From assembly GCA_964640355.1 (NCBI GenBank), contig CAZXGW010000002.1, positions 5,161-38,847 of the forward strand: 33,687 bases of DNA. Reading direction: 5' to 3'. The DNA is from an uncultured Enterobacteriaceae bacterium. GTDB lineage: Bacteria; Pseudomonadota; Gammaproteobacteria; Eutrophobiales; Eutrophobiaceae. Below the pieces are notes generated by a model. That model saw only the letters and a list, made by a program, of their open reading frames with translations, did no database searches and was not told the origin of the DNA. This document shows, piece by piece, positions 14,474-18,288 of this stretch (position 1 is the stretch's first letter; each line of letters begins with the position of its first letter). Both the position numbers and the translations under genes were made by a program.

Positions 14474-16342
14474 ATGCAAAACAATTTTCGCCTGATACCC
14501 GGCCTGCTGTTTTCAGCCTGTATCCTCTTCACGGCCGCCTGTTACTGGAGCGGCCTGAAGGGGCCCTTGTTGTTTGACGACATTCCTCACCTCTTGCCTC
14601 TTGTCAATGGCGAGTTCAGCGGTAGCAACTGGGATGAATTCCTCCTGAACAAATCGGGACCCCTGAAGCGGCCTGTCGCCATGGCGAGTTTCATCGCCAA
14701 TGCCTTCCTCCATGGTAACGACATCTGGTGGTGGAAGTTCACGAACCTGGTCATCCACCTGTTGACCGGCGTCGCAATTTTCTACTTCACCCTGCTACTG
14801 GTCGCCGCCGATCGACAGGCGGTAAACAGGGAGGCCTGGTGGATCAGTATGATAGTGGCGGGTATCTGGCTGGCGCACCCGCTGCATGTCAGCACCGTGC
14901 TGTACACGGTCCAGCGCATGACCCAGTTATCCGGGTTGTTCACTTTGCTGGCCATGATCGCCTATACCGCCGGTAGGACAAGGCAGATCCAGGACAGGCA
15001 CGGCACCCCTCACCTGATCGCCGCGTTTTGCCTGTTCCTTCCCCTCGGCATGTTCAGCAAGGAAAATGCCCTGCTGTTATTCGTATACTGCCTGCTGCTC
15101 GAATTACTCCTGCTGGGGTTCTATTCACGCTCAACTGATTTCCTGGCCGGGAAACGGCTTGCCTGCCTGTTGTTGATCCCGGTGGGCGCCGGGATGGCGT
15201 TGCTTCTCCTGTTCTTCGATGAAATGGTGTTGAGCAAATACGTCATCCGCGAATTCAGCCTGGCGGAGCGGCTGCTGACGGAGGCTAGGGTGATGGTTCG
15301 CTATCTTGGCATGATCCTGCTGCCAAGGCGGGAAGCCCTGGGCCTGTTACACGACGATATTGCCGTCTCGGCAGGCCTGCTACAGCCCCAGACGACACTG
15401 CTCTCCCTGTTGGTAATCATTCTTCTGCTCGGACTCGCCTGGTGGATCCGGCAGACGCAGAAGCTCGCTTCCTTCGGAATCCTGTTCTTTTTTTCCGCGC
15501 ATTTGCTGGAATCCACCGTGTTTCCGCTCGAACTGGCGTTCGAACACAGAAATTACCTCGCCTCGTTCGGGGTGATGCTTGCCGCCGTAGCATTGCTCTG
15601 GCGCATCCCGGTTCCTGAATATACAAAACGACTTGCCGGGCTGGGGATCATTCTGGCGCTGCTGCCGCTGACCTATCTGCGCAGTGACGACTGGTCGTCC
15701 GGCGGGAAACTCATCGATGCCATCTATGAGGTTCATCCGGAATCCAGGAGGATCCGGGCCGCCAGGGCTGACCGGCTGTCTAAGGCGGGGCGGTTTGAAC
15801 AGGCCAGGGCTCTGCTTTCGGTTCGACATGGAGTGGGCGAATTCTTCCAGCGGCTGAATATCGACTGCCGGCAGGAAAAAGCCGTGAATGACATTCTGTG
15901 GGAGGGGAGGCCGGCATTTTCCACCAGGATCCTTGACATGTATGCCATCAATGAAATCCGGAAATTCTCCCTCGCGGGCCTCGCGCGTGAATGCCGGTTT
16001 TCACGCGACAGGTTCCTTGCGCTCCTGGAGGAGATCCTGGCCTATCCGATGGTCGATAAATTCGAGGGCCACAAACTTTTTGTTTTCAAGGCGCATTATC
16101 TCTGGCAGGAAGGCAGGAACGAGGAAGCCTATGACAGCCTGGAGGAAGCGGCGAGACTGGTGCCTGATGATCCCGTCCCGCTATATCTTGCGGCGGAATG
16201 GTCGGCGAGGACGGGTGATATTCCACGTGCTGAAGAATATATAACACGGGCGATGAATCGATCCGACTTTAACCGAGAATTGCACGCGAAGCTTGCGGCA
16301 GGCGTAAGACAACTGATAGTTGATCAGTCGGGAAAGCAATGA
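14474..16342 (+). CDS. Polytopic GT-C-like membrane glycosyltransferase with C-terminal TPR domain (TMTC/PMT_2-like), paralog 1
   Basis: 622 aa. The N-terminal region of about 400 aa has about 10-12 TM helices. An Asp-Asp pair follows TM1 (LLFDDIPHL). It shares conserved blocks with the next gene (GPLKRPV, KFTNLVIHLL, FSKENA, ERLLTEARV, ESTVFPLELAFEHRNYL). The C-terminal region of about 200 aa contains TPR-like repeats. Confidence 0.7.
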   Translation: MQNNFRLIPGLLFSACILFTAACYWSGLKGPLLFDDIPHLLPLVNGEFSGSNWDEFLLNKSGPLKRPVAMASFIANAFLHGNDIWWWKFTNLVIHLLTGVAIFYFTLLLVAADRQAVNREAWWISMIVAGIWLAHPLHVSTVLYTVQRMTQLSGLFTLLAMIAYTAGRTRQIQDRHGTPHLIAAFCLFLPLGMFSKENALLLFVYCLLLELLLLGFYSRSTDFLAGKRLACLLLIPVGAGMALLLLFFDEMVLSKYVIREFSLAERLLTEARVMVRYLGMILLPRREALGLLHDDIAVSAGLLQPQTTLLSLLVIILLLGLAWWIRQTQKLASFGILFFFSAHLLESTVFPLELAFEHRNYLASFGVMLAAVALLWRIPVPEYTKRLAGLGIILALLPLTYLRSDDWSSGGKLIDAIYEVHPESRRIRAARADRLSKAGRFEQARALLSVRHGVGEFFQRLNIDCRQEKAVNDILWEGRPAFSTRILDMYAINEIRKFSLAGLARECRFSRDRFLALLEEILAYPMVDKFEGHKLFVFKAHYLWQEGRNEEAYDSLEEAARLVPDDPVPLYLAAEWSARTGDIPRAEEYITRAMNRSDFNRELHAKLAAGVRQLIVDQSGKQ

Positions 16343-18288
16343 AAGCAGGCCAACTGTTCATCCAGGTCCTCATACCCTGCGTCGTACTGGCGGCGGCATT
16401 CTTCGTGTATCGTCCCGGCCTGGGCGGCGGGTTTGTCTTTGATGACTATTCCAGCATATTAAAGAACGATGCCCTGAAGATTGAAACTCCCGGTGCAGAA
16501 GAATTGATTGAAGCCGCCACTTCGGGCTACAGCGGGCCGCTTGGCCGGCCGGTCAGCATGTTGAGTTTCGGGCTGAATGTTTACTCTACCGGCCTTGATC
16601 CCTATTTTTTCAAGCTGACCAACCTTTTCATCCATTTGCTGAACGGCGTATTGATCTACCTGCTGACTGTGCAATTGCTGGAAGCCGGCTTAAAGACAGC
16701 CCGTGAACACGGTTCCGACGCGGATCACAGGTTGGTTGCCTGGGCCGTAACCGCCGCCTGGCTTCTGCATCCTGTTAACCTGATCGGCGTCCTCTATATC
16801 GTCCAGCGGATGAACCTCCTGTCCGCCCTGTTTACGGTTCTCGGCCTGATCGCGTACCTGGCCGGAAGGCAAAGACAGATGAAAGGAGAAAGCGGCGCGG
16901 TTTGCATTTTCGTTTCCATCGTCGTCTGCGGCGGGATGGCGGTACTCAGCAAGGAAAACGGCGTGTTGCTGATCGTGTATTTGTTCGTCATCGAGTTCGT
17001 AATTCTGGGACTGGACAGCCGCAGGGCTTCCGCGAGGACGGGCCTCACCCTCTTTTTTGTGCTCGTGGCCTCCGTTTTTATCGCCGGGCTTGTTACCCTG
17101 CTGGTAGTGAATCCAGAATTCCTGTCCGCCGGTTACGAAGGGCGCGGCTTCACGCTTGTTGAGAGGCTGTTGACCGAGGCGCGGGTGCTCTGGTTCTATC
17201 TTTACCTGATCTGCCTTCCCAATATCCGGCAGATGGCGCTGTTCCATGACGATATGGCGCTTTCTATAGGCCTGTTCGAACCGGCGACGACGCTGCCGGC
17301 GCTGCTCGGGATCGCCGGCTTGCTGGCCGCAGCGGTTGTCATCAGGAAACGGCTGCCGGTCGCCGCGTTCGGGATCCTGTTTTTCCTTGCCGGCCACAGC
17401 CTGGAATCGACCATACTCCCGCTGGAAATTGCCCACGAATACCGCAATTACCTGCCATCCTATGGCATTATTCTCGTCATTTTTTATTACCTGCTGAAAC
17501 CCGGTCGGCGCCTGAAATATGCCGGCTATGGCCGGCTTGCCGCGGTCCTGCTTATTTCCGCTTTTGCCTTCGGCACGCTTGTGCGCGCCCATCAATGGGG
17601 CGATCCGGTCCTGTTGCGTTTTCACGAGTTGAACAGAAACCCCGAATCGGCCCGGGCAAACTACGAAATAGGCCGGTTTTACGCGATAGCGCTGGATGCG
17701 GGAAACGTTGATGACAGGGAGGGCATATACACTGAGGCCGAATATTATTTCAAGCGGGCACTCGGGCTGCGGCCCGGCAACCTGGAGGCGCTAGCCGGCC
17801 TGATCATCCTCGGTTCTTCGAACGGCAGATCGGTGCCCGATCGCTGGAAGGACGCGCTTCTGTTTCACCTCGAAAATTCGCCGCTGAATTATACCGGGAT
17901 CGAGTCGCTGCGGGCCCTGCTGACCTGCATCGGCATGCAAGAGTGCATTATCGGCCGGGATTATGCCGACGCCCTGATCCGGTCGGCGCTGGAAAACGGG
18001 AAACTGGCCGGTCACAGGGCGGCATTGACGTATCATTATGCGAGCCTGTTTTATTCCGAGTACGGGAATGATTATGATGCGGCCAGGACACTTGCCGAGC
18101 TGGCGGTCGCGGCGAAACCGGAAGACCCGAACCTGAGATTACGGCTGGCGGCGCTGTACATACGCCTGAACCGGTTTGACAAGGCGAAGTTACAGCTTGA
18201 AGCCGTCAGGCGGCACGACCGGTTGAATCTGCACGAGGAAAAGACCGCGGCGCTGGAAAGAATGATGTCCATGAGAGATGCAGAATAG
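16339..18288 (+). CDS. Polytopic GT-C-like membrane glycosyltransferase with C-terminal TPR domain, paralog 2
   Basis: 649 aa. Its start overlaps the upstream stop (ATGA). It has the FVFDDYSSIL motif after TM1 and the same conserved blocks as paralog 1. Clear TPR repeats are present (YYFKRALGLRPGNLEALAGL, AELAVAAKPEDPNLRLRLAALYIRLNRFDKA). Confidence 0.7.
   Translation: MKAGQLFIQVLIPCVVLAAAFFVYRPGLGGGFVFDDYSSILKNDALKIETPGAEELIEAATSGYSGPLGRPVSMLSFGLNVYSTGLDPYFFKLTNLFIHLLNGVLIYLLTVQLLEAGLKTAREHGSDADHRLVAWAVTAAWLLHPVNLIGVLYIVQRMNLLSALFTVLGLIAYLAGRQRQMKGESGAVCIFVSIVVCGGMAVLSKENGVLLIVYLFVIEFVILGLDSRRASARTGLTLFFVLVASVFIAGLVTLLVVNPEFLSAGYEGRGFTLVERLLTEARVLWFYLYLICLPNIRQMALFHDDMALSIGLFEPATTLPALLGIAGLLAAAVVIRKRLPVAAFGILFFLAGHSLESTILPLEIAHEYRNYLPSYGIILVIFYYLLKPGRRLKYAGYGRLAAVLLISAFAFGTLVRAHQWGDPVLLRFHELNRNPESARANYEIGRFYAIALDAGNVDDREGIYTEAEYYFKRALGLRPGNLEALAGLIILGSSNGRSVPDRWKDALLFHLENSPLNYTGIESLRALLTCIGMQECIIGRDYADALIRSALENGKLAGHRAALTYHYASLFYSEYGNDYDAARTLAELAVAAKPEDPNLRLRLAALYIRLNRFDKAKLQLEAVRRHDRLNLHEEKTAALERMMSMRDAE

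Follow-up and report, generated by a model that had tools for sequence, protein, structure and literature searches.

Introduction

Pilin glycosylation with D-arabinofuranose in Pseudomonas aeruginosa depends on TfpW, a protein of 646 amino acids encoded directly downstream of pilA, and is abolished by loss of TfpW or by mutation of its DDX motif (bioRxiv 10.1101/2020.04.19.049825). TfpW has its N-terminus in the cytoplasm, 11 predicted transmembrane helices, the DDX motif in periplasmic loop 1 and a large periplasmic tetratricopeptide repeat (TPR) domain, with ArnT as its best structural template; the preprint further reports that TfpW alone suffices for glycan polymerisation and transfer to pilin in P. 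aeruginosa PAO1, and that it self-interacts in two-hybrid assays (bioRxiv 10.1101/2020.04.19.049825). Here we describe two adjacent genes, GT-C A and GT-C B (A and B below), whose products are predicted to share this architecture, and which follow a pair of type IV pilin genes in a 33,687-nucleotide stretch of DNA (the window) from an uncultured Enterobacteriaceae bacterium (assembly GCA_964640355.1, contig CAZXGW010000002.1, positions 5,161 to 38,847). An earlier interpretation of the window made from its letters, the sequence-only reading, had called bacterial proteins that join a glycosyltransferase of fold class C (GT-C) to a TPR tail essentially uncharacterised; TfpW, with this architecture, this gene position and published genetics, contradicts that view. 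Our literature search for pilins with TMTC proteins, or for GT-C with TPR, found nothing beyond the TfpW preprint and a commentary.

TfpO (PilO) and PglL likewise link periplasmic glycosylation to pilins; they are Wzy_C/O-antigen-ligase-like enzymes that transfer preassembled oligosaccharides linked to undecaprenyl pyrophosphate. The tfpO gene also lies downstream of pilA; its product decorates its pilin with O-antigen units and, by published account, is not related to TfpW (PMC11841053). Unlike these enzymes, neither A nor B has a Pfam match to Wzy_C.

We consider it probable, at about 0.62, that A and B are periplasm-facing GT-Cs which O-glycosylate the upstream pilins from an undecaprenyl-phosphate-sugar made by the adjacent family 2 glycosyltransferase (GT2), and which differ from each other in acceptor position. 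Below we set out the evidence from sequence, structure prediction and comparative genomics, and weigh it against other accounts of why two such enzymes are encoded side by side.

Results

Two paralogs with a predicted GT-C fold

The sequence-only reading took A and B for paralogs with overlapping open reading frames (ORFs) of 622 and 649 amino acids, and the ORF list, the junction and BLASTP all agree. The junction reads gcaATGAaag, with the ATG of B overlapping the TGA of A, so the ATGA overlap is real. The proteins align over 595 columns at 34% identity (E 5e-77), and at 41% identity when the membrane domains are compared alone. All the colinear blocks that the reading had listed are found in the membrane-domain alignment (SGPLxRPV, KxTNLxIHLL, SKEN, ERLLTEARV and LESTxxPLExAxExRNYL), and in both proteins a DD pair at residues 35-36 directly follows the first hydrophobic helix (LLFDDIPHL in A, FVFDDYSSIL in B), giving a loop-1 motif at residues 34-37 of FDDI in A and FDDY in B. 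Both proteins also end in the TPR repeats it described, as Pfam TPR_19 scores above its curated cutoff in each (37 bits at residues 543-608 of A, 47.7 bits at residues 577-628 of B).

AlphaFold2 modelled full-length B with a mean predicted local distance difference test score (pLDDT) of 91.9 and a predicted template-modelling score (pTM) of 0.90, and residues 1-412 of A with 94.3 and 0.94. In Foldseek the full-length B model matched only TPR proteins; because the search was swamped in this way, the membrane domain was modelled alone. The structures that the A membrane domain then placed on top in the PDB were PimE (9dm5), STT3A (8b6l_I), ArnT (5f15), STT3B (6s7t_A), PIG-U and PglB (5ogl), with probabilities of 0.95-1.0 and query TM-scores of 0.31-0.43. 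The other matches, between and below these, were unrelated transporters at probabilities of 0.35 or less. All credible matches are therefore GT-C enzymes, and on these models the membrane domain of A and B is a GT-C fold. Sequence searches find no GT-Cs where Foldseek does, and we thus regard A and B as belonging to a sequence family without a solved member: PDB sequence searches with full A and full B returned TPR matches only, the A membrane domain on its own gave zero Pfam matches, the PMT and PMT_2 profiles match neither A nor B, and NCBIfam gave only sub-threshold TPR-type matches that leave the membrane domain uncovered. Among the 25 most-matched Pfam families in a scan of 72 family members, the last of which matches 2 members, none spans the membrane domain and DUF1736 does not appear.

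Conservation across the family centres on residues that both paralogs retain. In 75 membrane domains, A and B included, D35, R70, W141, P145, Q156, R157, K205, E206, R276, P294, L362, R369 and Y371 are invariant, and D36 is at least 90% conserved. None of the invariant residues is missing from A or B, and neither paralog looks inactive.

Predicted topology and divergence of the TPR domains

We built a topology model from the AlphaFold2 helices, family-averaged hydropathy and the bias of Lys and Arg (K+R) between loops. It predicts 11 transmembrane helices with the N-terminus inside, and places outside the extracytoplasmic loop EL1 (residues 28-87), which carries the DD pair; the long EL4 (258-317), with an amphipathic helix and a conserved H303-D304-D305; EL5 (359-373), with E367, R369, N370 and Y371; and the TPR domain. 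Cytoplasmic loops have a K+R density of 0.252 and periplasmic loops one of 0.068, and 77/77 members have the higher density inside. B-type proteins conserve a Cys-x5-Cys pair within the TPR domain, C530/C536 of B (window 17926-17946), at 97-100%, a pattern consistent with a disulfide in the periplasm. The sequence-only reading had named a cytoplasmic DD motif or TPR domain as evidence against itself; the K+R bias and the conserved Cys pair instead lead us to a predicted periplasmic location for both. A keeps only the second Cys of the pair (C507), with another Cys at 465.

The TPR domains are the most diverged part of the two proteins, and compared alone their similarity is not significant (E 0.035). 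This divergence fits the earlier suggestion that the TPR domains determine specificity.

Comparison with TfpW and eukaryotic TMTC proteins

A and B resemble TfpW in size, in their predicted 11 transmembrane helices and inside N-terminus, in a loop-1 DDX motif and a periplasmic TPR domain, and in the position of their genes behind a pilin. ArnT, the best template of TfpW, is among the Foldseek matches of A. Of the YX6PFX7P motif in loop 4 of TfpW only the YX6P core has a counterpart, Y287-X6-P294, with an invariant P294 and a Y287 that at least 90% of members share. They differ from the TfpW system in number, with two divergent paralogs instead of one; in the absence of a TfpX gene; and in the likely donor, as TfpW uses polyprenyl-phosphate-D-arabinofuranose, made by DprE1/DprE2-type genes, whereas the window has an ArnC/DPM1-like GT2. 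Pfam or NCBIfam scans of most long ORFs of the window, which do not extend to the genome beyond it, found no D-arabinofuranose-pathway domains.

The sequence-only reading had likened the architecture to that of the eukaryotic TMTC protein O-mannosyltransferases. A GT-C module followed by an extracytoplasmic TPR domain is indeed what the models give, but A and B have no match to the TMTC Pfam family (DUF1736), and the likeness is a resemblance only. By analogy with TMTC1-4 the acceptor would be a protein Ser or Thr and the donor a polyprenyl-phosphate-monosaccharide, and several homologs of A and B are labelled "protein O-mannosyl-transferase" by JGI. The genomic context of A and B, a pilin operon, sets them apart.

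A conserved pilA-GT-C-GT2 unit

The family is very large. B has more than 3,000 full-length homologs at 40-54% identity, and a search with the membrane domain alone returned 33,374 clusters (50% identity) at E <= 1e-3; 16,309 of them remained at 1e-10 and 6,060 at 1e-30; no homolog was found in the plasmid collection searched. A protein identical to B is the cluster representative on a 3.6 kb Logan contig. L001 (SRR5747861) encodes a protein identical to B, and L089 (JGI metagenome 3300022563), a contig apparently of the same organism as the window, holds a near-identical operon with the same gene order and most product lengths equal, its last protein being 99% identical.

We compared 80 genome loci from Beta- and Gammaproteobacteria, among them Gallionella, Undibacterium, Novimethylophilus, Dokdonella, Sinimarinibacterium, Achromatium and many metagenome-assembled genomes (MAGs). 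A pilin gene lies upstream of the GT-C gene on the same strand in 71 of the 80, at a median gap of 80 bp, and most of the remaining loci are interrupted by a contig end. Homologs of the window GT2 are present in 62/80 loci, and within 300 bp of the GT-C block in 49/80. From these adjacencies we define a conserved unit of pilA, a GT-C gene with TPR, and GT2. This unit often stands after sucCD-pilSR, as it does in the window, and the order pilS-pilR-pilA-GT-C recurs in many related loci.

The pilins of such loci offer candidate acceptors. Ser or Thr, with a background frequency of 20%, occupies mature position 63 in 70% and position 67 in 80% of 84 GT-C-linked pilins; both positions belong to the alpha-beta loop, and S63 and T67 are kept by both window pilins; we regard positions 63 and 67 as candidate acceptor positions. 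Mature residues 63-70 read S-V-S-G-T-T-S-G in pilin 1 and S-L-G-G-T-R-P-G in pilin 2, so the two pilins differ in their number of candidate acceptor residues. TfpW reportedly modifies the alpha-beta-loop residues Thr64 and Thr66, according to Kus et al. in 2008.

A and B belong to separate deep clades

We placed 108 GT-Cs in a neighbour-joining tree. A groups there with P0122-P0128, copy 3 of L010 and copy 2 of L079 in one deep clade; B belongs to the main clade, home of the pilin-proximal GT-C in most loci; and other extra GT-C copies form a third deep clade. The orthologs of A and those of B are separate sets, each reaching 53-54% identity, while A and B share 34% with each other. The A-type orthologs are 37-48% identical to A across 94-97% of their length, and alignments of A with B-type proteins are mainly confined to the membrane domain. 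Close A-type orthologs (at least 44% identical to A) were found only beside another GT-C, in L010, L079, L082, L084 and L087; in L086, the one GT-C that follows the pilin is a less closely related A-like protein (39% identity). Gene order varies: A is the first of the two in the window, and the A-type gene is the last before GT2 in L010, L082 and L084.

The closest synteny is that of L010 (positions 8005-13761), from the Gammaproteobacteria MAG SZUA-592, where three tandem GT-C/TPR genes follow a single pilin gene. These three come from three deep clades, and the second and third overlap by 4 bp.

Downstream genes and a candidate donor pathway

The GT2 behind B (Table 1) has AglJ, a dolichyl-phosphate hexose transferase, PpgS and ArnC as its best NCBIfam matches, and ArnC, dolichyl-phosphate-mannose synthase and GtrB as its best PDB sequence matches. 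Two methyltransferases (MT1 and MT2), a family 4 glycosyltransferase (GT4) and a sulfotransferase follow in tight succession, and hint at a methylated or sulfated glycan. The GT4 ORF opens at 19916; its likely start is 19949, and the GT4 call of L089 begins at the last MT1 base. The MT1-GT4 module recurs in L010, L032, L048, L050, L076 and L080.

The last protein of the operon, polytopic and 299 amino acids long, has no Pfam match itself, and pairwise BLAST against two PF03706 proteins was not significant. We take it as the candidate that might flip the lipid-linked sugar because its own homologs carry PF03706, the flippase-like family of LPG_synthase_TM proteins: 9 of the 29 homologs listed match it, and the five clear relatives among these nine are 35-52% identical. 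PF03706 genes also occur in the equivalent clusters of L087 and L088. On the opposite strand beyond it lies a divergent sugar-nucleotide operon, whose RmlB scores above the TIGR01181 cutoff and whose methyltransferase/DegT/RmlA/RmlB set recurs in L010 and L082; RmlA, RmlB and DegT together imply a capacity for dTDP-4-amino-4,6-dideoxyhexose.

A polyprenyl-phosphate-sugar synthase, two GT-Cs and a candidate flippase are encoded together. Judged by its genes, the operon resembles in anatomy a three-component periplasmic glycosylation system, with a flippase that is only a candidate; the framework of lipid-phosphate-sugar synthase, flippase and GT-C has been reviewed (PMC11194591). The likeness to ArnC/ArnT and to GtrA/GtrB/GtrC lies in the GT2 synthase, whose best PDB matches include ArnC, dolichyl-phosphate-mannose synthase and GtrB; in the candidate flippase; in a GT-C with an acidic EL1 motif, ArnT being the third fold match; and in a nearby DegT aminotransferase, which recalls ArnB. 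The differences are a presumed protein acceptor, the pilin, instead of lipid A or O-antigen; TPR domains on the GT-Cs; a flippase candidate like LPG_synthase_TM and not like GtrA or ArnE/F; and PMT_2, which misses A and B but matches another ORF of the window, the third GT-C of Table 1. That third GT-C adjoins the 996-residue protein of the same table.

The pilin region

Pilins 1 and 2 are 73-74% identical. A GC-rich hairpin separates their genes, and a second, terminator-like hairpin lies in the 141 bp between the end of pilin 2 and the start of A. Partial terminators that lower accessory-gene expression have been described after major pilin genes with accessory genes (PMC11841053). Hairpins behind both pilin genes fit this use, and the second is probably such an element, which would keep the accessory genes at a much lower level of expression than the pilins. 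Upstream of pilin 1, a sigma-54-like element matches with 2 mismatches; matches to the pattern are no commoner in the window than expected by chance, and the position of the element alone is suggestive.

The start of pilR is placed at MKTPTAL by inference from the ORF translation, which gives a 4-bp overlap with the pilS stop (11718-11721). Just upstream of pilS is a 74-residue ORF; L082 and L084 also have ORFs of about this length there.

Table 1. Features of the window discussed in the text, in order of position (aa, amino acids; TM, transmembrane helices; SAM, S-adenosylmethionine; MFS, major facilitator superfamily).
Feature	Position	Strand	Evidence
Third GT-C, 571 aa, ArnT-like, no TPR domain	2578..4293	+	Pfam PMT_2
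996-aa protein, MFS-like region and spermine/spermidine-synthase domain	4361..7351	-	
74-aa ORF, one N-terminal hydrophobic helix, Cys-rich C-terminus (CSHCG...CCDDH)	9885..10109	+	
PilS sensor kinase	10114..11721	+	Pfam 6TM_PilS, HisKA, HATPase_c
PilR sigma-54 response regulator	11718..13037	+	ORF list; orthologs with Response_reg, Sigma54_activat, HTH_8
Sigma-54-like -24/-12 element TGGCATGCCTTGTGCT upstream of pilin 1	13239..13254	+	Pattern, 2 mismatches; weak evidence
Type IV pilin 1, 148 aa	13383..13829	+	Pfam Pilin, N_methyl
GC-rich hairpin GGCCACC-acca-GGTGGCC then T-run, between pilin genes	13851..13874	+	Read from sequence; absent from terminator-scan list
Type IV pilin 2, 150 aa	13880..14332	+	Pfam Pilin, N_methyl
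Terminator-like hairpin, 9 pairs and T-tail, between pilin 2 and GT-C A	14351..14372	+	Terminator scan
GT-C A, A-type GT-C/TPR glycosyltransferase, 622 aa; DD 35-36, ~11 TM, TPR tail	14474..16342	+	ORF list, BLASTP, Pfam, AlphaFold2, Foldseek
GT-C B, B-type GT-C/TPR glycosyltransferase, 649 aa; DD 35-36, 11 TM, TPR tail with conserved C530/C536	16339..18288	+	Pfam, AlphaFold2, topology
GT2 polyprenyl-phosphate sugar synthase (ArnC/DPM1/GtrB-like), C-terminal TM	18306..19193	+	Pfam Glycos_transf_2
SAM methyltransferase MT1	19197..19949	+	Pfam Methyltransf_11/23
GT4 (GT-B) glycosyltransferase	19949..21121	+	Pfam Glyco_trans_1_4, Glycos_transf_1
SAM methyltransferase MT2	21172..21942	+	Pfam Methyltransf_11/25
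Sulfotransferase	21977..22933	+	Pfam Sulfotransfer_3; same gene in L085
Polytopic membrane protein, 299 aa, candidate lipid-linked-sugar flippase (divergent LPG_synthase_TM/UPF0104)	22923..23822	+	Homologs with PF03706
Divergent sugar-nucleotide operon: methyltransferase, DegT-type aminotransferase, RmlA, RmlB	23842..27712	-	Pfam, NCBIfam

Discussion

We suggest the following mechanism. On the cytoplasmic side of the membrane, the GT2 would take a sugar from a nucleotide sugar and attach it to undecaprenyl phosphate. The divergent RmlA/RmlB/DegT genes may supply this sugar as a 4-amino-4,6-dideoxyhexose, which the methyltransferases, GT4 and sulfotransferase may modify further. The lipid-linked sugar would then be flipped, possibly by the LPG_synthase_TM-like last protein of the operon, and A and B would transfer it in the periplasm to Ser or Thr residues of the upstream pilins, the EL1 Asp-Asp pair acting in catalysis and the TPR domain holding the protein acceptor. 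Both enzymes would probably serve both pilins, and would most likely differ in acceptor position, meaning another pilin site or the growing glycan, and not in pilin paralog. Different acceptor positions are the most economical solution because the operon has one lipid-sugar synthase and two GT-Cs with sequence-unrelated TPR domains.

Several points weigh against this reading. The Foldseek E-values of the GT-C matches are modest (3e-3 to 9e-2), the membrane domain is without a Pfam match in A and B and in the 72 members scanned at E <= 1, and a profile of 75 membrane domains had no match among PDB sequences even at E <= 10. What is known of the clade of A and B comes from sequence and predicted models, and TfpW, the characterised protein most like it in architecture and gene position, was compared by its published description; the full YX6PFX7P motif of TfpW is absent, as there is no F-X7-P and position 303 is the H of the conserved HDD. 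With hairpins after each pilin gene, co-transcription of the GT-C genes with the pilins is not assured. The roles given to GT4, the methyltransferases, the sulfotransferase and the Rml/DegT genes are guesses from proximity, and most related loci have only the GT2 of these accessory sugar genes.

The sequence-only reading had suggested that the GT-C pair and the pilin pair were duplicated together, giving each pilin a dedicated transferase whose TPR domain tells the pilins apart. The window does hold two pilins and two GT-Cs, as do three other complete loci and L084, and A and B differ greatly in their TPR domains; TfpW is also reported, by Kus et al. in 2008, to have a restricted pilin specificity. 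Identity within the two pairs is discordant, however, at 34% for A and B against 73-74% for the pilins, and the duplications prove incongruent: A and B, in their different deep clades with separate orthologs, are by sequence old subfamilies, which speaks against a duplication together with the pilins, whose pairs look lineage-specific. Pilin pairs are 74% (window) and 77% (L084) identical within a genome and 61-74% identical across genomes; identity within a genome exceeds that of most cross-genome pairs, which points to a recent, lineage-specific pilin duplication or to gene conversion. Copy numbers show no association either. In the 55 loci with complete flanks, one pilin accompanies one GT-C in 36, two GT-Cs in 9 and three in 1; a single GT-C accompanies two pilins in 4, three pilins in 1 and no pilin in 1; two pilins and two GT-Cs occur together in 3; and multi-GT-C loci are not associated with multi-pilin loci (Fisher p = 0.38). 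L082/L083 and L010 have A-type orthologs but just one pilin. Phylogeny and copy numbers largely refute a joint duplication, which we regard as very unlikely.

The two enzymes might instead act in sequence, the B-type enzyme, pilin-proximal in most loci, attaching the first sugar and the A-type enzyme extending the glycan, with sugars drawn from that lipid-linked donor or from another. Such a division would suit an operon with one polyprenyl-phosphate-sugar synthase and two GT-Cs (three in L010), the restriction of close A-type orthologs to loci with another GT-C, and the extra GT4, methyltransferase and sulfotransferase genes, which point to a glycan of greater complexity; a parallel exists in mycobacteria, where the Emb/Aft enzymes draw on one donor. 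It sits less well with a full TPR domain in both enzymes, as expected for protein recognition, with the A-like protein that stands alone in L086, with the MT1/GT4 module, which is not significantly linked to multi-GT-C loci (p = 0.16), and with TfpW, which reportedly polymerises and transfers glycan alone (bioRxiv 10.1101/2020.04.19.049825). We judge it possible, at clearly less than even odds. A different acceptor altogether, be it lipopolysaccharide or lipid A (the case of ArnT), a polysaccharide or many periplasmic proteins (the case of PMT and TMTC), would make the enzymes chance residents of a variable glycan island beside pilA; the closest folds include ArnT and PimE, which act on lipids, the GT2 and DegT proteins are most like Arn pathway enzymes, and hairpins stand between the GT-C genes and the pilins. 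Adjacency to a pilin in 71/80 loci across two classes at so short a median gap, a TPR domain that argues for a protein partner, and the precedent of TfpW with the same layout make this improbable. Finally, one paralog could be catalytically dead or regulatory and form a heteromer with the active enzyme, like Pmt1-Pmt2. The ATGA overlap suggests coupled, roughly stoichiometric synthesis, and the reported self-interaction of TfpW in two-hybrid assays points the same way (bioRxiv 10.1101/2020.04.19.049825), but A and B both retain DD, R70, K205/E206, R369/Y371 and every other invariant residue, and most loci manage with a single GT-C, so that a dead partner is the least credible of these accounts.

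What the locus probably adds is a form of TfpW-like pilin glycosylation in which the paralogs are tandem and divergent and the donor pathway is ArnC-like; the basic kind was already known. More tentatively, and at well under even odds, we suggest that the cassette marks a huge, essentially unstudied family of protein O-glycosyltransferases, in which direct decoration of pilins from undecaprenyl-phosphate-monosaccharides would be routine in environmental Beta- and Gammaproteobacteria and multi-paralog loci would build multi-site or branched glycans. On that same view the glycan here might be built on a 4-amino-4,6-dideoxyhexose bearing methyl or sulfate groups, a chemistry as yet undescribed for pilin glycans, and the family could be the bacterial sister group of eukaryotic TMTC.

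In P. aeruginosa, pilin glycosylation alters phage susceptibility, immune recognition and pilus assembly. If TfpW-like enzymes fed by simple undecaprenyl-phosphate-sugar donors are the norm beside pilA in Beta- and Gammaproteobacteria, pilus glycosylation would be far wider, and chemically more varied, than the few pathogen examples suggest. A catalytic domain with no Pfam model or solved structure is a target for annotation and structural work, and the tandem A and B genes offer a natural system for asking how a TPR domain sets acceptor specificity in GT-C enzymes, the same question that the eukaryotic TMTC proteins pose.

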